Made by a program: the position numbers and the translations under genes. Positions 16,736 to 30,849 of a DNA stretch of 64,000 nucleotides are shown here, piece by piece (the stretch's first letter is position 1; each line of letters starts with the position of its first letter). Location of the stretch: the NCBI RefSeq assembly GCF_012515855.1, contig NZ_JAAYXO010000014.1, forward strand, positions 4,472 through 68,471. The letters are read 5' to 3'. This stretch comes from Gordonia sp. (in: high G+C Gram-positive bacteria) (GTDB lineage: Bacteria; Actinomycetota; Actinomycetes; Mycobacteriales; Mycobacteriaceae). The notes below the pieces were generated by a model. It was not told where the DNA came from. It was given only the letters and a program-made list of their open reading frames with translations, and did no database searches.

Positions 16736-17662
16736 ATGTCGACCCCAGGCCAGCCCGATAGTGACCCGTTCGGCGAGACGATGTCGCGCCCGCTGCCGAC
16801 CGGCGGTGCAGGCGGGGGCACGCCGCCCCCGTACTCGCTGACGAAGGCCCCGTCGACTGACCAGAGCGGTGCGGTCGACAGCCGAACATCCCAGATCCCG
16901 ACGTCCCAGTTCCCGACGGCCGATTACTCCGACACCCAGTACGCCGTCAGCCCGCACTACTCAAACGAGCAGTACACAGACCAGCATTATTCGGACACCC
17001 AGTACGCGAACACCCCTTACCCGGGGAACCAGCACCCGTCGGGTCCGCCGACGGGCGGCGGCTACCCGGTGTACGGCTACTCGCAGCCGCCGTCGGGAGG
17101 CAACGGCCGCGCCGTGCTGCTCGGCATCGCGATTGCCTGCATCATCGGTCTGGTGGCGGCCGCCGCGGTGATCTGGACCAAGGTCGCGAACTCCGACGAC
17201 GACGTGGTGGCGAACCAACCGGGGACCACCGAGGTGCAGCAGGCCCCCGACACCGTGACCGAGGTGGTCGACCCGACCGCCGACGCGCTGCGTCAACTGC
17301 AGGAGCGCACGGCGTCCGACGCCACGACCATCCGATCGTCGCACGACAATCGATGGGCGGCGCAGATCAGCGCCAAACAGCCCGGTCTCTACGCCGATGG
17401 TCGTACCTGGGATTACCAGTCGATCCTCGCCGAGCACAACACCTCGCGGTCGCGTTATCCGCAGGTGAAGTTGCTGAACTCCAGCGAATGGCCGGTGTTC
17501 TCGCAGCAGAACTGGTGGATCACCGTGTCCGCGCAGAACTTCGCGACCCCGCAGGCGGCGCTGTCCTGGTGCCGCAGCAGCGGCTTCGACCGTGATCACT
17601 GCTTCGCCAAGCTCCTCAGCAGCACCAGTGGGCCGGAGGGATCTACGCTCTATCAGAGGTGA
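16736..17662 (+). CDS. Single-pass membrane protein with Pro/Tyr-rich cytoplasmic N-terminus and an extracytoplasmic disulfide domain
   Basis: TM segment AVLLGIAIACIIGLVAAAAVIW; C-terminal domain ending WCRSSGFDRDHCFAKL. Confidence 0.7.
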   Translation: MSTPGQPDSDPFGETMSRPLPTGGAGGGTPPPYSLTKAPSTDQSGAVDSRTSQIPTSQFPTADYSDTQYAVSPHYSNEQYTDQHYSDTQYANTPYPGNQHPSGPPTGGGYPVYGYSQPPSGGNGRAVLLGIAIACIIGLVAAAAVIWTKVANSDDDVVANQPGTTEVQQAPDTVTEVVDPTADALRQLQERTASDATTIRSSHDNRWAAQISAKQPGLYADGRTWDYQSILAEHNTSRSRYPQVKLLNSSEWPVFSQQNWWITVSAQNFATPQAALSWCRSSGFDRDHCFAKLLSSTSGPEGSTLYQR

Positions 17663-17685
17663 CCGACGCGTCTGAGGGAGTGCAC

Positions 17686-18507
17686 ATGCGACTGGCGATG
17701 GCCCAGATCGGTTCGAGCGACGATCCGGAGGCCAACTTGGCCACCGTCGTCGACCGGACCGCGCGGGCGGCAGCCGACGGCGCCGACCTGATCGTCTTTC
17801 CGGAGGCGACGATGTGCCGATTCGGCGTCTCGCTGCGGAAGGTCGCGCAACCGCTCGACGGGCCGTGGGCCAGCGAAGTCGTTCGAGTGGCCGACGCCGA
17901 GAACATCGCCGTGATGGCGGGCATGTTCACCCCCGCGGACGACGGTCGGATCCACAACACGGTGCTGGTCGCCCGCCCGGGACGCGAACCGGTCGGCTAC
18001 CACAAGATCCACCTGTTCGACGCCTTCGGTTTCGCCGAGTCCAAGACCATCGCTCCCGGCGACCAACCGCTCGTCGTCGACGTCGCCGGGCATCGGGTGG
18101 GGGTCGCCACCTGCTACGACATCCGGTTTCCCGCGCTCTTCGTCGAACTGGCGCGACGCGGCGCCGAACTGATCGCGGTGCCGACGTCGTGGGGATCGGG
18201 CCCGGGCAAGGTGCAGCAGTGGGAGGTGCTGTCGACCGCCCGCGCCTTGGACGCCACGGCGTTCGTGGCCGCGGTGGGGCAGGCCCTGTCCGACGATCCG
18301 GCGATCAGGGATTCCACAGCCCCGACGGGGATAGGTCATAGCCGCCTCTCAGATCCGTTCGGTAGCGTGATCGCCGACTACGATTCTGCGGCGCACACCG
18401 GCGTCCACGACATCGACCTGGGCTTGACACGCAAAGCGCGCGAGGCGCTGGCCGTGCTTGCCAATGCCCGCGAAATTCCCCGACTGGATGGGACCACACG
18501 CATATGA
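17686..18507 (+). CDS. Carbon-nitrogen hydrolase (nitrilase family, Rv0480c-like)
   Basis: E-K-C triad in FPEA, YHKIHLFD and TCYDIRFP; GGAG RBS before ATG 17686. Confidence 0.9.
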   Translation: MRLAMAQIGSSDDPEANLATVVDRTARAAADGADLIVFPEATMCRFGVSLRKVAQPLDGPWASEVVRVADAENIAVMAGMFTPADDGRIHNTVLVARPGREPVGYHKIHLFDAFGFAESKTIAPGDQPLVVDVAGHRVGVATCYDIRFPALFVELARRGAELIAVPTSWGSGPGKVQQWEVLSTARALDATAFVAAVGQALSDDPAIRDSTAPTGIGHSRLSDPFGSVIADYDSAAHTGVHDIDLGLTRKAREALAVLANAREIPRLDGTTRI

Positions 18508-19700
18508 CCGAGCGAGACCCCTCGTCGCAGCACCCCGACGACCTGACCGCGGACGAGCCAGCGGTCGACGAGTCGACCGCTGATGAGTCGACGGCTGCCG
18601 TCGAGCCGAATGCCGACGCCTCGTCCGCTGATGGGCCCGCCGGCGAGCAGTCGGCAGACGACGCCACGAGCGAGATGTCCGCGGGCGATCAGCCGACCGT
18701 TCCCGTGCCGTCGAACGACCCGCCGCCGGCCGTCCTCGACGAGACCCCCACCGGAGAAGTGATCACCGGGCCGATCCGGGCCGTCCAGGACCCGAAGACG
18801 CACGCCTACTCGCAGACGGGCAAGCCGCCGACGATGCAGATGGATGCGCTGGATTCCAGCGCGTTCGAGCCGATTCCGTCGGGTCCGCCGACTCCGCCGC
18901 CCAGCGGCCCGGTGATGTCATCGCCGATGAAGTCGTCGGGCGGTCGCAAACGCGGACGCGGTCGGACCATCGGTCTGGTGGTGGCCGCTGTGGTCCTGCT
19001 GGTGGTGATCGCGGGCGTCGGCTCCGAACTCTACATCCGAAACAAGGTCACCAGCTGCCTGCAGACCTCCTTCGACAACCTGACCGGCACGCAGACCGAC
19101 GTCTCCGTCTCGCGACGACCGATGCTGCTGTCGATGATGGACGGCGACGTCCCGTGGGTTCAAGTCGACACCTCGTCGGGCGACAGCAACAACATTCGCC
19201 TGCACGCCCGCGCGGAGGGGATCAGCACCGACGGCGGCACCGTGCAGAAGCTCGAAGGCAACGGCTTCCTGCCCTACGAGCGGATCAAGTCGCTGACCCA
19301 GGGGGGCGAGGGTAACGGTCAGCAGACAGGCAGCACGATCGAGGAGATCACCGCCGACCCGTCGGCCGGGACGTTGAAGATCTCGACCACCTTCACCGTC
19401 GCGATCATCCCGGTGCCCGCCACCGTCACCTTGAAGCCCATCGTGAAGGACGGTGCGGTGACGTTCGAGGTCAAGGAGGCCACCGCCCTGGTCTTCGGCC
19501 TGCCGAACGACTTCGCCCAACCGGTCGTCGATCAGGTCACCACGGCCATGTTCGGCCCGCTCTTCAAGCAGATCAAGGTCTCGAAGCTCGACGTCGCCAA
19601 GGACGGTGTCGACTTCGCGTTCGCCGGTACCGACGTCAACCTGAAGTCGGCGGCTGAGCAGATCGGCGACACGAGCGGCGGAAACGGCTGCTCGGTCTAG
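18504..19700 (+). CDS. DUF2993/LmeA-like membrane-anchored protein (Rv0479c-like) with a long acidic N-terminal extension
   Basis: Acidic low-complexity N-terminus, one TM (IGLVVAAVVLLVVIAGVG) followed by ELYIR; syntenic next to deoC. Confidence 0.7.
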   Translation: MTERDPSSQHPDDLTADEPAVDESTADESTAAVEPNADASSADGPAGEQSADDATSEMSAGDQPTVPVPSNDPPPAVLDETPTGEVITGPIRAVQDPKTHAYSQTGKPPTMQMDALDSSAFEPIPSGPPTPPPSGPVMSSPMKSSGGRKRGRGRTIGLVVAAVVLLVVIAGVGSELYIRNKVTSCLQTSFDNLTGTQTDVSVSRRPMLLSMMDGDVPWVQVDTSSGDSNNIRLHARAEGISTDGGTVQKLEGNGFLPYERIKSLTQGGEGNGQQTGSTIEEITADPSAGTLKISTTFTVAIIPVPATVTLKPIVKDGAVTFEVKEATALVFGLPNDFAQPVVDQVTTAMFGPLFKQIKVSKLDVAKDGVDFAFAGTDVNLKSAAEQIGDTSGGNGCSV

Positions 19701-19786
19701 GTCCTGCCGCTGACCTCCCCGATCGCCTTTCCACCGTTGATCGTGACCCGCTCCGGGTAACGATCAACGGTGGAAGTGTTTACGGG

Positions 19787-20464
19787 CTACTCGGGGAAGC
19801 CGTCGAGCACCGCGCGGCTGCCCGACAGGCCGAGCCTGGTGGCCCCGGCCGCGATGAGCTCGGCGGCGAACTCCGCGGTCCGGATGCCGCCGCTGGCTTT
19901 GACTCCGAGATCCGGTCCGACCGCCGCGCGCATCACCTCGATCGCGCGGACGCTCGCACCGCCTGACGGATGGAATCCGGTGGAGGTCTTCACGAAGTCG
20001 GCGCCGGCCTCGACGCAGCGACGGCACACCTGGGCGAGGCCTTCCTCACCGATCGTCTCCAGGAGCACGGCCGACTCGACGATCACCTTCAGCACCACGT
20101 CGTGGCCGATGGCCTCGCGGACGGTCATCACGTCGGCGAAGACCTCGTCGTAGTTGCCTGCGACCGCCGCGCCGACGTCGATCACCATGTCGACCTCGTC
20201 GGCGCCGGTGTCGACGGCGAGCCGAGCCTCGGCGGCCTTGACCAGCGAGTGGTGCTTGCCCGACGGGAAGCCCGCCACCACGCACGTCTCGGCTGTGCCG
20301 GTGTCGATCGGCAGCATCGACGGCGACAGACAGATGGCGTAGACACCCAGATCGAGTCCTTCGGTGACGGTGGCTTCGGCCTCCGCGCGCGTGGTCTCGG
20401 GCTTGAGGATCGTGTGGTCGACCATCGCTGCGACAGCCGCTCGGGTCAGGTTGGTGTTGATCAC
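19787..20464 (-). CDS. deoC: Deoxyribose-phosphate aldolase
   Basis: [45 protein letters not shown]. Confidence 0.95.
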
Positions 20465-20491
20465 GAATTCGAGCTTGGCACACTTAGACGG

Positions 20492-21382
20492 GTGAGCAAC
20501 TCCCAGATCTCCTCAGACGACGACGAACGTCGTTTCGTTCTGACTCTCGGCTGCCCCGACCGCACCGGCATCGTCGCCGGACTCTCCGGGTTCTTGACCG
20601 GAGTCGGCGGCTGGATCACCGAGGCCGCATATCACTCGGATCCGTCGACGGGCTGGTTCTTCACCCGCCAGGCGGTGCGCGCGGACTCGGTCGGCATGCC
20701 GGTCGAGGAATTCCGTCGGCGGTTCGCCGAGGTGGCCGCGATGTTCGGTCCGGAAGCGGAATGGAACGTCACCGACTCCGGTGCGGAGAAGTCGGTGGTG
20801 CTGCTGGTGAGCAAGGACAGTCACTGCCTCACCGACATCCTCTCGCGTGCCGAGCGTGGCGACTTCCCGGCGCAGGTGAGCGCCGTGGTCGGCAATCACC
20901 GGGATCTGGAGCAACTGACCACCCGTTTCGGCATCCCGTTCCACCACGTGCCGTTTCCGAAGGAGGGCAAGGCCGAGGCCTTCGCCGAGGTGCAGCGGAT
21001 CGTGGAGGGCTACGACCCGAATGCGATCGTGCTGGCGCGTTTCATGCAGATCCTGCCGCCCGAGCTGTGCGAGGCGTGGGCCGGGCGGGCCATCAACATT
21101 CACCACAGCTTCCTGCCGAGCTTCATCGGCGCCCGCCCGTATCACCAGGCCTTCGATCGCGGCGTCAAGCTGATCGGCGCCACGTGCCACTACGTGACCG
21201 CCGACCTCGACGCGGGTCCGATCATCGAGCAGGACGTCAGCCGCATCGACCACGGTTACTCCGCCGCCGACATGGTCCGCCAGGGCCGTGACATCGAGAC
21301 GCTGGTGCTGGCCCGCGGCGTCCGCTGGCACCTGGAGCACCGGGTCCTCGTCCACGACCGCAAGACGGTGGTCTTCCAGTAG
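20492..21382 (+). CDS. purU: Formyltetrahydrofolate deformylase
   Basis: ACT domain ([11 protein letters not shown]), [39 protein letters not shown]. Confidence 0.95.
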
Positions 21383-21403: not shown

Positions 21404-22549
21404 CTACAAGCCCAGGTCCTTCGCGATGATGGTCTTCATGATCTCCGTGGTGCCGCCGTAGATCGTCTGGATGCGCGCGTCGACGAACGCCCGCGACACC
21501 GGGTACTCGCGCATGTAGCCGTACCCGCCGTGCAGTTGCAGGCATCGGTCGGCGACGCGGACCTGGAGTTCGGTGGTCCACCACTTGAGCTTGGCGGCAC
21601 GGGCTGCGGTGAGCTCGCCCGCCACGTGCTGGGCGAGGCAGTCGTCCAGGAAGGTGCGCGCCAGGTCGAGCTCCGTGGCCAGCTCGGCCATCACGAACTG
21701 GGTGTTCTGGAAGCCGCCGATCGGCGAGCCGAACGCACGACGCTGCTCCACGTACTCGCGGGTGGCCGCGAAGACCCCTTCGGCGGCGGCGACGGCGCCG
21801 ACCGCCAGCGACAGGCGCTCCTGCGGAAGATTCCGCACCAGCTGATAGAAGCCGTCGCCCTCGGCGCCGAGCCGGTTGGCGACGGGCACGCGCATGTCGG
21901 TGAAGGCGAGCTCGCTGGTGTCCTGCGCGTGCAGACCGATCTTGTCGAGATTGCGGCCGCGCTCGAAGCCGGGGGTCTCGGCGTCGACCACCAGCAACGA
22001 CAGTCCGCCGTGCCGCTCGGGGCCGGTGCGCACGGCCACCACGAACAGGGTGCCGTTCTCGCCGTTGGAGATGAACGTCTTGGCGCCGTTGACCACGTAG
22101 TCGTCGCCGTCGCGGACCGCGGTGGTCGCGATGCCCGCCAGATCGCTGCCGGTGCCGGGTTCGGTCATCGCGATGCCGAGCACGGTTTCGCCCGTCACCG
22201 TTCCGGGCAGCCAGCGGGCCTGCTGTTCGGCGTCGGCGAGGTCGGTCAGGTACGGAAGCACCACGTCGTTCTGCAGTGAGAACGCGATCGCGGCGGCGGC
22301 CGCACCGACGCGGGCCACCTCTTCGACGATGATCGCGTGGTAGCGGAAATCGTCGACCCCCGGTCCGCCGAACTCCTCCGGAACCGGGAACCCCAGGAGT
22401 CCGTGTCCGCCCGCGTCGGTGAACATCGACGCGGGCAGTCGGCCCGACTGCTCCCAGCCCTCGTGCTGACCGACGATCTTCTCGGCCACGAAACTGCGGG
22501 CCAGATCCCGGAACTGCCGGTGCTCGTCGTCGAGTTGCAGTGCGCTCAT
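21404..22549 (-). CDS. Acyl-CoA dehydrogenase (LCAD-like)
   Basis: IAMTEPGTGSDL, VNGAKTFISNG, ERLSLA, GGYGYMREY, IYGGTTEIMK. Confidence 0.92.
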   Translation of the reverse strand: MSALQLDDEHRQFRDLARSFVAEKIVGQHEGWEQSGRLPASMFTDAGGHGLLGFPVPEEFGGPGVDDFRYHAIIVEEVARVGAAAAAIAFSLQNDVVLPYLTDLADAEQQARWLPGTVTGETVLGIAMTEPGTGSDLAGIATTAVRDGDDYVVNGAKTFISNGENGTLFVVAVRTGPERHGGLSLLVVDAETPGFERGRNLDKIGLHAQDTSELAFTDMRVPVANRLGAEGDGFYQLVRNLPQERLSLAVGAVAAAEGVFAATREYVEQRRAFGSPIGGFQNTQFVMAELATELDLARTFLDDCLAQHVAGELTAARAAKLKWWTTELQVRVADRCLQLHGGYGYMREYPVSRAFVDARIQTIYGGTTEIMKTIIAKDLGL

Positions 22550-24213
22550 GATCGTCCTCCCATGTGCTCGAAGCGGCCGGAAGCGAGGTCGTCGCGAGCC
22601 TGTTCGGTGGCCTTGTAGTGCAGCTTCTTCCCGGTCGCCGAGACCGGGAGCTGATCGACGAACCGGTAGGCGCGCGGCCGCTTGAACGACGACAGCATCG
22701 GATGGTGGTGGCAGTGGGCGTCGAGTTGCTCCGCGCTGGTGGTGTCGCCGTCGACGCGCACCACATACGCGACCACCCGCTGCCCCCATTCGTCGTCGGG
22801 CACGCCGACCACCAGCGAGTCGGCGACGCCGGGATGGGCGTTCAGCGCTTCCTCGACCTGCACCGGGTGGACGTTCTCGCCGCCGGAGAGCAGCATGTCG
22901 TCCTTGCGGCCGACGATTGTCACGAACTCGTTCTCGTCCCAGGTGGCCAGATCGCCGATGTACAGCCAGCCGTCGCGGAACTTGGCGGCGTCCTGCTCGG
23001 GATTGTCGTAGTACTGCGCGGCGCCCTTCGGGGAGCGGACGATCACCTCGCCGACCGCGGTGTTGTCGCGGGCGACGACGTCGCTGGGATCAGCCAGCCC
23101 GCCGTCGCGGACGGCGACGACGGCGACGTCGTCGTCGATGCACGAGCGGCCTGCGGTCCCGGCCATGGCGGGCAGGTCGGTGGGCCGCAGGAAGGTGTTC
23201 CAGAATCCCTCGGTGCTGCCGTAGCCGTTGAAGATTCGCGGATTCAGCACTTCCTGGTAGTGCAGCGCGGCCTCGCGCTCGAGCGGTGCGCCCATGGTCA
23301 CGAGACCGTTGAGCGTCGAGAGATCGCGCGGGCGGGCCACCTGCGCGCGGGCCAGCATCGCCAGGTTGGTCGGTGCGCCGATCAGGAAGGTGAGCCCCAG
23401 CCGCTCCACCAGGTCGAGCGTCGCGTTGGCATCGAAAGTGTGCATCGGGACCAGTGAACTGCCCAGGTAGAAGGTGGGGTTGGGGCCCGCGCAGTACAGT
23501 CCGCCGCGATGGAACCACGGCGTCATGTTCAGTGTCTTGTCCTCGGGCGAGAGCGGGAACTGCATGATCACGTCGTGCGCGCTGAAGACCTCGATCATGC
23601 TGTTCATCGGCACGGCCTTCGGCATGCCGGTGGTGCCCGAGGTGAACAACCGCGTGGTCTCGTCCCACACCGTGCGCTGCGGCGGCGGGGGCGTGCCGCC
23701 CGGCTCCGGAAGGTCGCGGTAGCGGAGGACGGTGCTGCCGTCGCGTCCCGCGAGCGGTTCGCCGTCCCCGACCGCGACGAGCACCTCCGGCACGTGGGTC
23801 GCGTGCTCCAGGGCGGTCGCGACGACCTCGCCGAGCGAGGTGTCGTAGACGAAGACCTTCGGGCGCGTGGTGCTCAGGATGTAAGCGGTCTCGCCTGCGG
23901 CGAGCCGGAAGTTCATCGGGGCTCCGACCGCGCCCGCGGCCTGCGTCGCGAGGTAGAGCTCGGCGAACTCGGGACCGTTGTGCAGTTGATAGGCCACCAC
24001 GTCGCCGGGCTGCACGCCCGCCGCGATCAAACCCGCAGCGAGGGCGTCGACTCGGCCGCCGAGGTCGGCGTAGGTGATGTTCTCGCCGGTCTCGGCGAGC
24101 TGAATCGCCGGGCGGTCGGCGAAGCGATGGACGTTCCGACGGAAGCCGTTCAGGTAGGTGAAGTCGTTCTCGAAGTACTCGCGGTAGGCGCGGGCGTCGT
24201 ATGTGTAAGACAT
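22546..24213 (-). CDS. Acyl-CoA ligase (AMP-binding family)
   Basis: FTSGTTGMPK, NGYGSTE, YIGDLA, GRKDDMLLSGGENV, SATGKK. Confidence 0.92.
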   Translation of the reverse strand: MSYTYDARAYREYFENDFTYLNGFRRNVHRFADRPAIQLAETGENITYADLGGRVDALAAGLIAAGVQPGDVVAYQLHNGPEFAELYLATQAAGAVGAPMNFRLAAGETAYILSTTRPKVFVYDTSLGEVVATALEHATHVPEVLVAVGDGEPLAGRDGSTVLRYRDLPEPGGTPPPPQRTVWDETTRLFTSGTTGMPKAVPMNSMIEVFSAHDVIMQFPLSPEDKTLNMTPWFHRGGLYCAGPNPTFYLGSSLVPMHTFDANATLDLVERLGLTFLIGAPTNLAMLARAQVARPRDLSTLNGLVTMGAPLEREAALHYQEVLNPRIFNGYGSTEGFWNTFLRPTDLPAMAGTAGRSCIDDDVAVVAVRDGGLADPSDVVARDNTAVGEVIVRSPKGAAQYYDNPEQDAAKFRDGWLYIGDLATWDENEFVTIVGRKDDMLLSGGENVHPVQVEEALNAHPGVADSLVVGVPDDEWGQRVVAYVVRVDGDTTSAEQLDAHCHHHPMLSSFKRPRAYRFVDQLPVSATGKKLHYKATEQARDDLASGRFEHMGGRS

Positions 24214-24241: not shown

Positions 24242-24982
24242 TCAGCCGGCCATGGTGAGGCCGCCGCTGGCGCTGATCACCTGGCCAGTGATGAACGACG
24301 CGGCGTCGGACGCGAAGAAGACGACCGGCGCGGCGATCTCCTCCGGCCGCGCGAGACGGCGGAACGGGATGGCCCGGATCAAGGCCTCCTGCAGCTTCTC
24401 GGCCTGCGACGCGAACAGCGGCGTGTCGGTGGGGCCGGGGCAGACGCAGTTGATGTTGATACCGTGTCGCGCCATCTCGCGAGCCAGCGACTTGGTGAGC
24501 GCGATGACGCCGCCCTTCGCTCCGGCGTAGATGGTCTCGCCCGCGCTGCCGACGCGGCCCGCGTCGCTGGCGACGTTGACGACCTTGCCGCCGTTCCCGG
24601 CGTCGACCATCCCCGGCAGGAACGCGCTGCACATGTGCACCGGACCCAGATAGTTGATGGCGACGACCTTCTCGGCGAACTCGGGGGTGGCATTCAGGAA
24701 TTGGTCGGTGCGGTCCCAGCCTGCGGCGTTCACCAGGATGTCGGCGACGCCGAGTTCGGCGGTCACCCGGTCGCGGAGCGCGTCCACCCGACTGCGGTCG
24801 GCGATGTCGACTTCCATGGCGTGAATGCGTCCGGCCGGTCCCTGCTCGACGGTCGCGATGGCGGCGTCGAGGTCGAGGTCGGCGGCGACGACGGTGTCAC
24901 CGCGCTCGGCGAGGGCCAGGGCGATGGCACGGCCGATGCCCGAACCGGCTCCGGTGACGACGGCGATGGATGTGGTGCTCAT
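24242..24982 (-). CDS. SDR oxidoreductase, BadH-like (2-hydroxycyclohexanecarboxyl-CoA dehydrogenase family)
   Basis: TGAGSGIG, NAAGWD, ASDAGRVGS, YAGAK, CPGPTDTPLF; AGWD and SDAxRVGS are typical of BadH as I recall it. Confidence 0.8.
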   Translation of the reverse strand: MSTTSIAVVTGAGSGIGRAIALALAERGDTVVAADLDLDAAIATVEQGPAGRIHAMEVDIADRSRVDALRDRVTAELGVADILVNAAGWDRTDQFLNATPEFAEKVVAINYLGPVHMCSAFLPGMVDAGNGGKVVNVASDAGRVGSAGETIYAGAKGGVIALTKSLAREMARHGININCVCPGPTDTPLFASQAEKLQEALIRAIPFRRLARPEEIAAPVVFFASDAASFITGQVISASGGLTMAG

Positions 24983-25013: not shown

Positions 25014-25829
25014 TCAGGCGGTGGGGGCGGTCGGTGCGGCCGATGGGAAGGCGGGCGCGCGCTTCTCGCGGAGCGCGGTGTAGCCCTCGACGACGTCGGG
25101 CGCCATGAAGCAGAGCATCTCGTAGGCGGCCGACTGATCGAAGATGGGACCGGCGTTGCGCATCCAGTTGTTCAGCGACTTCTTGGTCCAGCGGATGGCG
25201 TTCTGCGAACCGGTCGCCATCACCTCGGCGATCCGGAGGGCTTCGTCAAGCACCTGGTCGCGGGGGAGGGCCTTGGTGACCAGGCCGATCCGCTCGGCCT
25301 CGGCTCCGGTGATCATCTCGCCGGTCATCAGGTAGTACTTGGCCTTGGCCATTCCGGCGAGCAGCGGCCACAGGATCGCGGCGTGGTCGCCCGCGGCGAC
25401 ACCCAGCTTCACGTGCCCGTCGCCGAGCTTGGCGTCCTCCGCGCAGACGGAGATGTCGGCCAGCAGGGCGACCACGGTGCCCGCGCCGACGGCGACGCCG
25501 TTGATCGCGGAGATCACCGGCTTGTTGCAGTCGACGAGGCCGTACACCAGGCGGCTCATCTCATCGAGCATGTCGGCCACGCGTTCGTGGTCGCCTGCCA
25601 TGGCTTCGACCATGGAGAGGTCGCCGCCCGCGGAGAAGGCCTTGCCCGCCCCGGTGACGACGGCCACGCGAGTCTCCGGGTCTGCCGAGACCTCGCCCCA
25701 CACCCGTGCGAGTTCGGCGTGCATCGTCTCGTTGGTGGCGTTGAAGACCTCGGGTCGGTTGAGGGTGATCAGCAGGACGCCGTTGGCGCGACGTTCGAAC
25801 AGAAGATGCTGGTAGTCGGAGAAGTTCAT
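25014..25829 (-). CDS. Crotonase-superfamily enzyme; lacks hydratase glutamates, has an OCH-like His/Asp dyad
   Basis: [23 protein letters not shown]; [12 protein letters not shown] sits where PE is expected. Confidence 0.85.
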
Positions 25830-25867: not shown

Positions 25868-25956
25868 AATGAACATTGGTTCATTAATGATGAACATAGA
25901 TTCATTAGTGCGGGCCGTCAAGGGGTCCGACCAGAAAGATGAATATTCGTTCATCT
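25868..25956. promoter_or_regulatory. Three TetR-type operators, consensus ATGAAY-N4-RTTCAT
   Basis: AATGAAC-ATTG-GTTCATT (25868-25885), GATGAAC-ATAG-ATTCATT (25889-25906), AGATGAAT-ATTC-GTTCATCT (25937-25956). Confidence 0.8.
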
Positions 25957-25990: not shown

Positions 25991-26647
25991 ATGTCCGAGA
26001 TTCTCGATCCCGACGTCGCGGCGCGAGAGGCGCGTGCGTCACAGCGGTCTCGGCAGCTGCTCGACGCCGCGGCCCGGCTCATGGAGAAGACCGGATCGGA
26101 GGCCGTCTCGATGCAGGCGCTCGCGGCCGAAGCCGGGGTGAGTGTCGGGCTGATCTACCGCTATTTCGGTAGCAAGGACGACGTCCTGCTGGCCGTGATC
26201 ACAGACGTGCTGACCCAGTTCGAGGTGGAGGTGCCCGCGGCCATCGCCGACGCCGGAGACGATCCCGTCCGCCGCGTGGGGGCTGCGTTCGGCGCGTATT
26301 GCCGGGTCATCGATTCACGTCGCCACGCGGCGCTGCTGACCTACCGGGAGAGCAATGCGCTCGGTCACGAGGCCCGACAACGGATCAAGGAACTGGAGGT
26401 GGCGACGGTCGATCCGCTGCGTCGCGCCCTGGCCGACGGCATAGCCGAGGGACGGCTGGTGGCGCAGCACTCGGATCTGGTGGCCTACAACCTGCTGCTG
26501 CTGGCACACGCGTGGGCGCTCAAGCACTGGTACTTCGAGCGGACGCTCGACATCGACGGGTACATCCGGGCGCAACTCGCGCTGTCGCTGCGCGGGCTCG
26601 TGGCACCCGAGTTCGTCGCCGAGTACGCGGACCTGTTGGTCGGCTGA
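25991..26647 (+). CDS. TetR-family regulator, divergent from the acyl-CoA operon
   Basis: AVSMQALAAEAGVSVGLIYRYF HTH; GGAGGGAG RBS. Confidence 0.92.
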   Translation: MSEILDPDVAAREARASQRSRQLLDAAARLMEKTGSEAVSMQALAAEAGVSVGLIYRYFGSKDDVLLAVITDVLTQFEVEVPAAIADAGDDPVRRVGAAFGAYCRVIDSRRHAALLTYRESNALGHEARQRIKELEVATVDPLRRALADGIAEGRLVAQHSDLVAYNLLLLAHAWALKHWYFERTLDIDGYIRAQLALSLRGLVAPEFVAEYADLLVG

Positions 26648-26659
26648 CGGCAGCTCGCG

Positions 26660-27418
26660 CTAGCCGGTCTTGATGTTCCGGCGTGACGTCGCCTGGTCGC
26701 GGGGACGTACGACGATCTGGTCGAGGTTCACGTGCGGCGGCCGGGACGCGGTGAACGCGACCAGCTCGGCGATGTCGTCGGCGATCATCGGCTGCAGACC
26801 CTTGTAGACGGCGTCGGCTTTGGCCTCGTCGCCGTTGAAGCGGACCAGCGAGAACTCGGTCTCGACCATGCCGGGGCAGATCTCGGTGAGGCGGATCGGC
26901 TTGCCGATCAGTTCCAGTCGCAGCGTGCGGTGCAGCACCCCCTGGGCGTGCTTGGCGGAGGTGTAGCCCGCGCCGTTGTCGTAGACCTCGAGCGCCGCCG
27001 TGGAGGTGATCGTGACGATCAGGCCGTCGCCCGATGCCTCGAGTTTGGGCAGCAGCGCTTTGGTGATCCGGAGGGTGCCGACCACGTTGGTCTCCCACAT
27101 CCATCGCCAGTCCTCGAGGTTGGCCTCGGAGACCGGCGCGAGTCCCTTGGCGCCGCCGGCGTTGTTGACCAGCACGTGCACGGTGTCGAGCGTTGCGACG
27201 AAGCGTTCTACCGAGGCGGCGTCGGTGACGTCGAGATACATCGCCCGGCCGCCGATCTCCTCGGCGAGGGTCTCCACCCGATCGGTGCGACGAGCGCCGA
27301 GGACCACCGAGTAACCGTCGCGCGCGAGGGCCCGGGCGGTGGCCGCGCCGATTCCCGAACTCGCGCCCGTCACCACTGCGATCTTGTTGTTGCCGACTGC
27401 GTTTCCCGGGTTGGTCAT
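26660..27418 (-). CDS. SDR oxidoreductase (YdfG/Rv0484c-like)
   Basis: TGASSGIG, VNNAGGAKG, YTSAK, EICPGMVETEFS. Confidence 0.9.
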   Translation of the reverse strand: MTNPGNAVGNNKIAVVTGASSGIGAATARALARDGYSVVLGARRTDRVETLAEEIGGRAMYLDVTDAASVERFVATLDTVHVLVNNAGGAKGLAPVSEANLEDWRWMWETNVVGTLRITKALLPKLEASGDGLIVTITSTAALEVYDNGAGYTSAKHAQGVLHRTLRLELIGKPIRLTEICPGMVETEFSLVRFNGDEAKADAVYKGLQPMIADDIAELVAFTASRPPHVNLDQIVVRPRDQATSRRNIKTG

Positions 27419-27478
27419 GCCTCGAGTCTAAGAGATGCGGCCGCGCGCGCTCGGCGGTCACGGTGATCGCGGTCATGA

Positions 27479-28633
27479 ATGACTGCTAAGTTCGGGGCCA
27501 TGACGATCAGCGGCGTTGTGGCCGCGCCCCTCCACTTCGGGACCGGCCCGGCCGCAGCGGTCCTGAACGCCGTCCGGGTGGGCGCCCCCGCCACCCGAGA
27601 CCAACTCGTCGCCGACACCGGACTCTCCGCGGCGACGGTGAATCGTCAGGTCAACGCCCTGCTCGACGTCGGCCTGGTGGTGGAGCGACCCGATCTGCTC
27701 AGCAGTTCCGGAGTCGGCAGGCCCAAGCGGCCGTTGACGCTCGACGGCGAACGGTACTGCGTGGCGGGCATTCACATCGGTGCACGGCGAACAGCCCTGG
27801 TGATCGCCGATGTCGGCGGTCGGACCCTGTACAGCCACGCCATTCGCACCCAGGAACTCACCGGGACCGACGCCGAGACGGCGATCGGTCGACTCTGCGA
27901 TCTGCTGAGTGAACTCGCCGGTCGTTTCTCCGGCCGTCGGGTCCTGTGGGGCGGTGCGGCGCTGGGCGGAGTGGTGGACGAAGACACGGGCGTGGTGGAC
28001 CACCCGATTCTCGGTTGGGCACGACAGCCGCTCGGGCAGCGACTGCACGCCGTGCTCGGTGTGCCGGTCTCGGTGGCCGAACACGTGCAGGCGATGGCGG
28101 CGGCCGAACTGCTCCTGGCGTCCACCGTGACGCGCACCGGGTCGAGTCTGGTCTTCTATGCGCGCGAGACGGTCGGCATGGCACTGATCATCGACGGCGA
28201 CGTTCATCAGCCGGCCCGCGGCGCCGGGACCATTGCCGGGCTGCCGGTGCGCCCCGGGGTGCTCGACACCGAGCCGGTCGCGGCGCTCCAGGGCGTCATC
28301 GGCACGGCGGCCACCAAGGCCGCGGCCGCCCGACTCGGAGTGGCCGATTCGGCGGGCGTCGTCGCCGACGACCGCGCTCGCGTTCTCGGTGAGGCGGTCG
28401 CGACCATGCGCGACGTCCTGAATCCGGACGAGATCGTCGTGGCGGGCGACGCTTTCTCGGCGCATCCGCACGGACTGGCTCCGGTGCAGGCGGCGTTCGA
28501 CGCGGCGACCCTGCTGCCGGGACCGCTGGAGATCGTGCCGACGTGCTTCGGTGTGCAGGTGACGGAATCCGCGGCGATCGCGGTCGCGCTGTCGGCGCTG
28601 TACGCCGATCCGCTGGGGGTCGTGGGGGAGTAG
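27479..28633 (+). CDS. ROK-family regulator (Rv0485-like); start uncertain
   Basis: N-terminal HTH (TRDQLVADTGLSAATVNR), GVGRP, GIHIG; divergent from the Rv0484c-like SDR. Confidence 0.8.
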   Translation: MTAKFGAMTISGVVAAPLHFGTGPAAAVLNAVRVGAPATRDQLVADTGLSAATVNRQVNALLDVGLVVERPDLLSSSGVGRPKRPLTLDGERYCVAGIHIGARRTALVIADVGGRTLYSHAIRTQELTGTDAETAIGRLCDLLSELAGRFSGRRVLWGGAALGGVVDEDTGVVDHPILGWARQPLGQRLHAVLGVPVSVAEHVQAMAAAELLLASTVTRTGSSLVFYARETVGMALIIDGDVHQPARGAGTIAGLPVRPGVLDTEPVAALQGVIGTAATKAAAARLGVADSAGVVADDRARVLGEAVATMRDVLNPDEIVVAGDAFSAHPHGLAPVQAAFDAATLLPGPLEIVPTCFGVQVTESAAIAVALSALYADPLGVVGE

Positions 28634-28675
28634 CGGTTAGCCCCGCAGGGAGACCGGTCAGCCCCGCAGGGAGAC
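28634..28675. repeat. 21-bp tandem duplication of the otsB 3' end
   Basis: CGGTTAGCCCCGCAGGGAGAC followed directly by CGGTCAGCCCCGCAGGGAGAC. Confidence 0.9.
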
Positions 28676-29418
28676 GAGTGTCTCCAGCACCGCGGCGACC
28701 CCGTCGGGATCGGCCACCCGGTACTGCGCGGCGGTGTCACCCGCTCCGACCTTCACGCCGACGTCACCGTCACGCAGATGGGCGAAGGCCTTCTCGTCGG
28801 TGACGTCGTCGCCGAGGTACACGATCGCATCCACCGCGAGGGCGTCGCGTAGGCGGTCGAGGGCGTGCCCCTTGCTGGTCTCGATCACCGCGAGCTCGAC
28901 GACGGCCTTGCCGTGCGTCACGTACACGCCGTCCCACGACGCCGGACCGGACTCGGCGAGCCGCAGGGCCGCGGCGGCGTCGTCGTCGGAGGCGTTGCGG
29001 ACGTGCAGGGTGGTGCTGATCGGCTTCATTTCCACCGAGGTGCCGGGGAAGCGCGCGCTGATCGTCTCGAACTCGGCGATGATGCGGGCCAGCAACTCGC
29101 GCTCGGCGTCGCCGACCGCGGTGTCAAATCCCTCGGCGAACTCCGAGCCGTGGCTGCCGACCAGGGTCAACCGGTCACTCGCGCCGGACAACGACTGCAG
29201 GTCGGACCGCGCGCGGCCGGACACGAGGGCGGCGACGGTGTCCGCCGTCCTCGCGCACGCTTCGAGCGCGGCCATCGACCGCGGATTCGGGACCGCGTCC
29301 TCCGGCCGCGACACGATCGGTGACACGCATCCGTCGTAGTCGGAGGCCACCAGGATCCGCGGTCGGGCGGCGAGCTTCGCGAGCGCGGTCGTCAAGGCCT
29401 CGTCGAGCACCGGTCGGC

Positions 29419-29422
<4 letters not shown>
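28658..29422 (-). CDS. otsB: Trehalose-6-phosphate phosphatase
   Basis: HAD motifs [29 protein letters not shown]; coupled to otsA. Confidence 0.93.

Positions 29423-30849
<1,427 letters not shown>

Follow-up and report, generated by a model that had tools for sequence, protein, structure and literature searches.

A Gordonia crotonase with the catalytic residues of 6-oxocamphor hydrolase as a putative replacement for BadI in alicyclic ring opening

A gene in a 64,000-nucleotide stretch of Gordonia sp. DNA (NCBI RefSeq assembly GCF_012515855.1, contig NZ_JAAYXO010000014.1, positions 4,472 to 68,471; the whole stretch is hereafter called the window) encodes a crotonase of the EchA15/PRK07327 family. 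We consider it probable that this protein is a coenzyme A (CoA)-dependent retro-Claisen hydrolase of 2-oxocycloalkane-1-carboxyl-CoA that takes the place of BadI, and its role is most likely the opening of alicyclic rings in naphthenic-acid breakdown. It would most likely be a functional analogue of BadI and not an orthologue, belonging neither to the BadI/MenB clade nor strictly to the family of 6-oxocamphor hydrolase (OCH) and the beta-diketone hydrolase ABDH. The residues, their conservation, the family assignment, the orthology of the operon and the displacement in its first slot are shown by the comparisons below, while what the enzyme does, on which substrate and with which residues is inferred from OCH/ABDH and BadI. 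As the original prediction had expected of automated annotation, the public records name the crotonase an "enoyl-CoA hydratase/isomerase family protein", and all its orthologues likewise appear as "enoyl-CoA hydratase" or under that longer name. The crotonase gene stands first in a tight operon on the minus strand, where it is followed by the genes of a short-chain dehydrogenase (SDR), an acyl-CoA ligase and an acyl-CoA dehydrogenase (ACAD). The features of the locus, with the evidence for each, are as follows.

25014..25829, minus strand: EchA15/PRK07327-family crotonase, 271 aa, putative 2-oxocycloalkane-1-carboxyl-CoA hydrolase (open reading frame (ORF) list, PRK07327 score, residues, model)
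24242..24982, minus strand: BadH-like SDR, 246 aa, orthologue of chcpca ORF2 (TIGR03206, identity)
22546..24213, minus strand: AMP-forming acyl-CoA ligase, 555 aa, aliA-like, orthologue of chcpca ORF3 (identity, BCP1 primers)
21404..22549, minus strand: ACAD, 381 aa, aliB-like, orthologue of chcpca ORF5 (identity)
25991..26647, plus strand: TetR-family regulator, 218 aa, divergent (ORF list, profile)
25869-25884, 25890-25905 and 25939-25954, no strand: three palindromic operator-like sites, ATGAAYANNNRTTCAT (pattern search)

Both glutamates of canonical enoyl-CoA hydratases (Glu144 and Glu164 in the rat enzyme, ECH) are missing from the crotonase, as had been claimed from the sequence. When the protein is aligned with a Glu/Glu hydratase found in related clusters (GGGFELALACD...GLPEVGIG), their positions are taken by Val119 and His139. 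The published structural alignment of the Mycobacterium avium EchA15 structure 3Q1T with rat ECH, which places V126 at E144 and H146 at E164, agrees with this (PMC3584854); these two residues of 3Q1T, whose sequence is 51% identical to the crotonase, correspond to its V119 and H139. His139 is separated from Asp148 by the nine-residue spacing of the His145/Asp154 pair in OCH, and the OCH peptide with this pair that the original prediction had cited proved exact at residues 140-161 of 1O8U/1SZO. If anything, that prediction understated the match. The crotonase also has counterparts of the two accessory residues, His37 for His45 of OCH and His43 of ABDH, and Glu237 for Glu244 and Glu243, and it holds the full OCH/ABDH catalytic set of His37, His139, Asp148 and Glu237. 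The location of the His/Asp pair in the active site is supported by the homologue 3Q1T, in which both residues overlap the catalytic His144 and Asp153 of ABDH in space (PMC3584854).

The idea of such a dyad in this family is not new. In a 2013 computational study with SALSA, Wang et al. argued that 3Q1T is a beta-diketone hydrolase and not an enoyl-CoA hydratase, and that its predicted active site (D155/H146/E244/H44) overlaps the catalytic residues D153/H144/E243/H43 of ABDH in space (PMC3584854). The four residues correspond to D148, H139, E237 and H37 of the crotonase. What was published in 2013 is a prediction of CoA-independent beta-diketone hydrolysis, without a link to CoA or to a pathway; the EchA15 type is linked here to an alicyclic-acid pathway, a connection that was not found in the literature searched.

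The crotonase also retains the motifs for CoA binding and the oxyanion hole, namely NRPEVFNA, AFSAGGD (residues 64-70) and GVAVGAG (residues 111-117). The segment AFSAGGDL, which the original prediction had described as kept, spans residues 64-71, and the two further segments that it cited span residues 115-125 and 135-155. Both patterns of a thioester oxyanion hole, AxxAGxD and GxxxGxG, are present. In rat ECH the hole is formed by the backbone NH groups of Ala98 and Gly141 (PMC3584854), which correspond, through the published structural alignment, to Gly69 and Ala116 of the crotonase. With three CoA motifs and OCH-type residues together, the crotonase looks like an enzyme that binds a CoA thioester and carries a water-activating set of the OCH type, in line with the original prediction.

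These residues are conserved well beyond Gordonia, and the catalytic set is nearly invariant in the family. Among 105 full-length representatives of clusters at 50% identity, which reach down to 35% identity to the crotonase, His139 is kept in 98, Asp148 in 102 and Asp137 in 99, while His37 and Glu237 are kept in 87 and 84, respectively. Since each of these five residues is kept in at least 80% of the representatives, the pattern is not due to chance. Phe65 (97/105), Gly68 (98/105), Gly115 (103/105) and Gly117 (98/105) are similarly conserved, and Gly111 also falls within the band of 97-103/105. The crotonase belongs to NCBIfam PRK07327, on which its residues 2-266 score 391.6 bits (cut-off 292), carries the signature of the EchA15/PRK07327 family (D-G-H...G-x-A-A-G-D-H...W-P with His37 and Glu237) and is placed in the ClpP/crotonase superfamily by PF00378 and PF16113, which are found in all its homologues. 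The family comprises 922 clusters at the 50% identity level with E<=1e-30.

The nearest solved structures are structural-genomics proteins of the EchA15 type, 46-54% identical to the crotonase; they come from M. marinum (3QK8, E 1.9e-82), M. avium (3Q1T) and M. paratuberculosis (7M3W; both E ~3e-79) and Thermus (1WZ8, E 3e-64), and 3RRV is related but more distant. The signature segment, His37 and Glu237 are common to them. An AlphaFold2 model of the crotonase, built from a 58-sequence family alignment, has a pLDDT of 96.4 and superposes on 3QK8, 7M3W and 3Q1T with TM scores of 0.90-0.98 and a root-mean-square deviation (rmsd) of ~1.0 A. In Foldseek comparisons, EchA15, 3RRV, 3PEA and 4LK5 lay within an rmsd of 1-3 A of the model, whereas canonical hydratases and PaaG gave an rmsd of ~17 A although their TM score was ~0.75. 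The model suggests that the C-terminal helices of the crotonase fold back on their own subunit, unlike the swapped arrangement of classical ECH. The deposition title of 3QK8 describes M. marinum EchA15 "in complex with an unknown ligand"; this ligand, once identified, could reveal the natural substrate or product of the EchA15 family.

The rest of the operon connects the crotonase to a pathway under study elsewhere. In Rhodococcus aetherivorans BCP1, the chcpca genes are induced 70-800-fold on cyclohexane- and cyclopentane-carboxylate (PMC5906575; also PMC4591350, PMC9795900). They are arranged as ORF1 ("badI / naphthoate synthase"), ORF2 (badH), ORF3 (aliA), ORF4 and ORF5 (both ACADs), a TetR gene, ORF7 (hydratase) and a second TetR gene (PMC5906575). 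The quantitative PCR primers for BCP1 orf3 find sites in the window ligase gene, at 22680 and at 22607, each with a single mismatch, and those for orf2 match the SDR genes of close orthologous loci with 0-2 mismatches. A locus of R. indonesiensis (L084) has the full eight-gene order, and there the orf2 and orf3 primer pairs match with 0 mismatches and four orf1 primers with 0-3; its SDR, ligase and ACAD are 78%, 71% and 79% identical, respectively, to those of the window. Compared with their counterparts in chcpca-type operons more widely, the window SDR is 76-87%, the ligase 71-85% and the ACAD 77-90% identical, and the combination of SDR, ligase, ACAD and TetR that marks a chcpca/bad-ali operon is shared at 70-90% identity with the eight loci described below (L084-L091). 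By these primer matches and identities, the backbone of the window operon is orthologous to chcpca. The BadH-like nature of the adjoining enzyme, as first proposed, is upheld by its best NCBIfam match, TIGR03206 (BadH), at 253 bits, which is under the equivalog cut-off of 431. No plasmid in PLSDB gave a tblastn match to the ligase at 1e-100.

BCP1 ORF1 was at one point considered as an orthologue of the crotonase, given the same gene order in Nocardia clusters. This was rejected, as the orf1 primers match no EchA15-type gene and ORF1 of the R. indonesiensis locus is of the MenB/BadI type. The latter protein scores 325 bits on menB and 320 bits on badI, carries the segments GGGH and GSFDAGFG, and is 32% identical to the crotonase.

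In operons whose SDR, ligase and ACAD share 70-82% identity with those of the window, the Rhodococcus chcpca cluster among them, the position directly upstream of the SDR is occupied by one or the other of two kinds of crotonase. Eight look-ups anchored on ligase orthologues (L084-L091) each placed a crotonase there (8/8). It is of the BadI type in six of them (L084-L087, L089 and L090), from R. indonesiensis, an R. wratislaviensis-like contig, G. rubripertincta, G. desulfuricans, Gordonia sp. TBRC 11910 and G. rhizosphera, and of the EchA15 type in the other two, from G. phthalatica and Tomitella gaofuii (L088 and L091). The EchA15 type also occupies this slot in the window itself and, among crotonase-anchored loci, in those of G. 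aichiensis, G. hydrophobica, nine Nocardia, Skermania and a Burkholderiaceae metagenome-assembled genome (MAG). Among the operons examined, none holds both types or neither, and a BadI-type gene was found within 8 kb at none of 80 EchA15-anchored loci. In a neighbour-joining tree of the ligase (no bootstrap), the two slot types interleave and each is represented in Gordonia as well as in Rhodococcus, and the ligase of the R. wratislaviensis-like contig, which has the BadI type, is sister to the Nocardia/Skermania clade, which has the EchA15 type.

The two types are clearly distinct proteins. In a profile alignment, the positions of His139 and Asp148 are occupied by Gly and Phe in the BadI type, which has an Asp of its own (GSFDAG) two to three positions earlier. 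Conversely, the crotonase lacks the marks of the BadI/MenB clade, reading GAGT and GVAAGDH where that clade has GGGH and GSFDAG(F/Y)G, and neither TIGR03210 nor TIGR01929 is among its best 25 hidden Markov model matches, the lowest of which scores 121 bits. Two distant crotonases with different catalytic residues thus swap at one operon position, which argues for non-orthologous displacement of a single function. The replacement of BadI that the original prediction had put forward is supported, indirectly, by this pattern of mutually exclusive occupancy.

Neighbouring genes were counted at the 60 orthologue loci that have flanks of 4 kb or more on both sides. At 31 of them an SDR homologue is encoded no further than 4 kb away, and at 20 it directly adjoins the crotonase gene, an adjacency that fits a producer-consumer pair for a beta-keto-acyl-CoA. 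The ligase is found within the same distance at 21 loci and the ACAD at 31, and at least one of the three at 41.

We propose the following route. The ligase would convert an alicyclic acid (cyclohexane- or cyclopentane-carboxylate) to its acyl-CoA, from which the ACAD would form cycloalk-1-ene-1-carboxyl-CoA. A hydratase encoded outside the window would add water to give the 2-hydroxy compound, and the BadH-like SDR would oxidize this to 2-oxocycloalkane-1-carboxyl-CoA. The crotonase would then cleave the bond between C1 and C2 in a retro-Claisen (retro-Dieckmann) reaction to yield pimelyl-CoA or adipyl-CoA. For this step, His139 and Asp148, aided by His37 and Glu237, could deprotonate a water molecule that attacks the ring ketone, as in 6-oxocamphor hydrolase. 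Cleavage would leave a thioester enolate in an oxyanion hole formed by the backbone NH groups of Gly69 and Ala116 (in AFSAGG and GVAVGAG), and protonation of the enolate would release pimelyl-CoA or adipyl-CoA.

The hydration step is where a rival explanation arises. The crotonase could itself be the hydratase of the pathway, in the role of BadK, with His139 and Asp148 acting as acid and base in place of the Glu/Glu pair and the ring-cleaving enzyme encoded elsewhere. A module of ligase, ACAD, hydratase and dehydrogenase is the simplest form of beta-oxidation, the four-gene operon has one crotonase and no other within 64 kb, and His139 stands exactly at the position of Glu164. We nevertheless regard this as unlikely, for both catalytic glutamates are gone and the slot is held elsewhere by MenB/BadI-type enzymes. 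We know of no member of the MenB/BadI clade that hydrates enoyl-CoAs. The eight-gene operons of both forms (the BadI-type R. indonesiensis locus and six EchA15-type loci of the Nocardia type) moreover carry an extra canonical Glu/Glu hydratase after the TetR gene, which indicates that the EchA15-type crotonase is not the hydratase there. Short operons without a canonical hydratase likewise occur in both forms, represented by the window and by G. rubripertincta (L085). As the latter operon is of the BadI type, the absence of a hydratase is not specific to the EchA15 type, and an enzyme encoded elsewhere in the genome presumably carries out the hydration. Quite unlikely, in our view, is a proton-shuffling isomerase of the PaaG or dienoyl-CoA isomerase kind, which would shift a double bond in a cyclic or branched enoyl-CoA with Asp148 as the base. 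Asp148 does align with Asp136 of PaaG (in "IPDCGG"), which we take to be catalytic, in agreement with the title of entry 6SLA (a D136N structure), and PaaG structures outscore OCH in searches with the crotonase (~3e-36 against 1e-24). PaaG, however, lacks the histidine at position 139 as well as counterparts of His37 and Glu237, and the conserved four-residue set instead fits OCH/ABDH; an isomerase also has no evident place in a chcpca-type pathway and would not be interchangeable with a BadI-type enzyme.

The 2013 proposal for 3Q1T, extended to the crotonase, would make it a CoA-independent beta-diketone hydrolase like OCH and ABDH. The catalytic residues fit ABDH (PMC3584854), and EchA15 is the nearest solved structure to an OCH orthologue outside OCH/ABDH. 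Yet the crotonase retains the three motifs of CoA-dependent crotonases, lacks OCH His122, has the genes of an acyl-CoA ligase and an ACAD in its operon, and can be exchanged for an enzyme type that depends on CoA, all of which makes this reading very unlikely. A thioesterase or decarboxylase resembling HIBCH, DmdD or MMCD, with an acyl-CoA from this or some other pathway as its substrate, appears highly improbable. Such activities do occur among crotonases with non-canonical residues (PMC3660561), and a third of the orthologues are found away from such an operon. No residue match specific to the HIBCH, DmdD or MMCD families was seen, however, and the equivalence with the BadI slot, along with the tight SDR adjacency, points to a beta-keto substrate.

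Several observations weigh against ring opening by the crotonase. Its overall similarity to OCH/ABDH (identity ~28%, E 1e-24 to 1e-25) is no better than to rat ECH and other ordinary hydratases or to the BadI type, it has no counterpart of OCH His122, and the alignment of Asp148 with the PaaG aspartate must be counted here as well. The geometry of its active site was read from the published alignment of 3Q1T, a homologue. For EchA15 and its PDB entries, the literature searched yielded the 2013 SALSA prediction and no functional study. The BadI-type proteins in the slot score 317-326 bits on TIGR03210 (badI) and TIGR01929 (menB), under the NCBI cut-offs for both BadI and MenB, and are assigned by homology and induction only. 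Within the 64-kb window there is no second crotonase or hydratase for the preceding step. At about one third of the loci of close orthologues (72-80% identity), none of the three partner genes for SDR, ligase and ACAD is found within 4 kb, and the mycobacterial EchA15 genes presumably lie outside such an operon altogether, in unrelated surroundings. Taken together, the last two points raise the possibility that the general substrate of the family is something else.

How far the proposed activity extends within the family is a related question. The mycobacterial EchA15 proteins are only 51-54% identical to the crotonase, which is the level of paralogues, whereas true orthologues are 72-91% identical; the family may accordingly act on a wider set of beta-keto-acyl-CoAs. 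That the whole EchA15/PRK07327 family, including M. tuberculosis Rv2679, forms an unrecognized class of CoA-dependent beta-ketoacyl-CoA C-C hydrolases is a tentative suggestion, somewhat more doubtful than not. The closest orthologues are those of G. aichiensis (91%), G. hydrophobica (90%) and G. phthalatica (91%). Others at 72-80% identity are spread across the Actinomycetota, and a few occur in assemblies of Comamonas/Burkholderiaceae, Gemmatimonadota and Ktedonobacterales. Orthologues that are 74-79% identical were observed in MAGs assigned to other phyla, namely Comamonas (L048, L050 and L051), Burkholderiaceae (L049), Gemmatimonadota (L028), Ktedonobacterales (L042) and "Melainabacteria" (L022), and the Burkholderiaceae MAG also encodes the SDR (75%) and the ligase (67%). 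These could be attributed either to recent horizontal transfer of the module or to mis-binned actinobacterial contigs. We also observed a metagenomic homologue (P0018; 469 aa, 79% identity) that was called as SnoaL/NTF2-like domains fused to a crotonase, and a separate SnoaL_4 gene (L087:1709-2242) upstream of the BadI-type operon of G. desulfuricans. The SnoaL association may reflect an accessory gene that recurs, or an artefact of gene calling.

The crotonase ORF begins with an ATG preceded by AAGGA, and the N-terminus of the protein reads MNFSDYQH. Each gene of the operon has a Shine-Dalgarno-like sequence, and the junctions are short or overlapping; the ATG of the ACAD gene overlaps the stop codon of the ligase gene (ATGA). 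The gap between the crotonase and TetR genes is 161 bp long and has a G+C content of 50%, compared with 68% in the window. The three palindromes within it are the only matches to the pattern in the window, with 0 expected by chance, and they are kept upstream of the orthologue in G. aichiensis, G. hydrophobica, G. phthalatica and G. liuliyuniae. They are likely to be the operator set of the TetR regulator. The operon is flanked by housekeeping genes at 17659-21382 and 26660-30849, whose order matches that of G. phthalatica CP011853; those on one side encode a CN-hydrolase, an LmeA-like protein, deoC and purU, and those on the other a YdfG-like SDR, a ROK-family regulator, otsB and otsA. The gene order of G. 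phthalatica is that of the window over more than 13 kb.

Should the proposal hold, it would supply a concrete and testable reaction for a large, conserved family that is universally mislabelled "enoyl-CoA hydratase", and which includes EchA15 of M. tuberculosis as well as four orphan crystal structures. Ring opening in the aerobic degradation of naphthenic acids such as cyclohexane- and cyclopentane-carboxylate would then have two non-orthologous solutions, which would be relevant to marker-gene surveys in oil-sands bioremediation that now seek badI. A hybrid of the OCH-type dyad with a CoA oxyanion hole would be of interest for crotonase evolution and for the biocatalytic desymmetrization of cyclic beta-keto thioesters. 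It would also bear on the question, asked by Crowe et al. (2017), of whether other mycobacterial EchAs are reverse-Dieckmann catalysts.

Of the known systems, OCH and ABDH share with the crotonase the fold and the His-x8-Asp pair in the same segment, with H145/D154 and H144/D153 corresponding to H139/D148, and His45/43 and Glu244/243 to H37 and E237. The roles of the OCH residues are taken from PMC3584854 and PMC11780191, and were reportedly described by Leonard and Grogan in 2004 as well. In our proposal the chemistry would be shared too, as an attack of water on a ketone that is beta to an enolizable carbonyl. The systems differ in that OCH and ABDH are CoA-independent and have lost the motifs NRPxxxNA, AxxAGGD and GxxxGxG, while the crotonase and its whole family retain all three, as the aligned segments illustrate.

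NRPEVFNA in the crotonase: HTEGKSLV in OCH, HTNGSSLV in ABDH
AFSAGGD in the crotonase: SFCNEID in OCH, AWMAEID in ABDH
GVAVGAG in the crotonase: GPVTNH-PE in OCH (with His122), GAALLH-SE in ABDH

In profile comparisons with hhalign, the family matched OCH/ABDH at 1.3e-45 and the BadI type at 1.6e-40, values that do not set it nearer to the former, and the best match of an OCH orthologue among solved structures outside OCH/ABDH was EchA15, if only marginally. A close OCH orthologue (E = 5e-110 to 1O8U) was found on the 694-kb plasmid pR8L1 of Rhodococcus sp. 008 (NZ_CP015203.1; L081:3578-4339). Its neighbours encode an acyl-CoA dehydrogenase, a MaoC hydratase, a thiolase, an AMP-binding ligase and two more crotonases, so that a CoA-independent camphor hydrolase is here embedded in a catabolic cluster of the CoA type. 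If the EchA15 family does pair the His/Asp/His/Glu set of OCH with a canonical thioester oxyanion hole, it would be a mechanistic and evolutionary link between the CoA-dependent crotonases and the CoA-independent OCH/ABDH.

With chcpca ORF1 the crotonase shares its slot and its partners, and by analogy the CoA-dependent retro-Dieckmann ring opening of BadI, the 2-ketocyclohexanecarboxyl-CoA hydrolase of Rhodopseudomonas palustris and Aromatoleum, is proposed for it, although BadI/MenB form a different clade at 32% identity. The EchA15 family would in that case be a second, independent solution to the BadI reaction. Another related system is EchA20 of M. tuberculosis, a HIEC-CoA hydrolase that opens steroid ring D (PMC5380842). 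As is proposed for the crotonase, EchA20 is an actinobacterial crotonase that is annotated as a hydratase and is in reality a CoA-dependent reverse-Dieckmann ring opener. EchA20 clusters with MenB, however, and lies in the KstR2 regulon beside IpdAB, whereas the crotonase is not MenB-like and has no ipd genes nearby.

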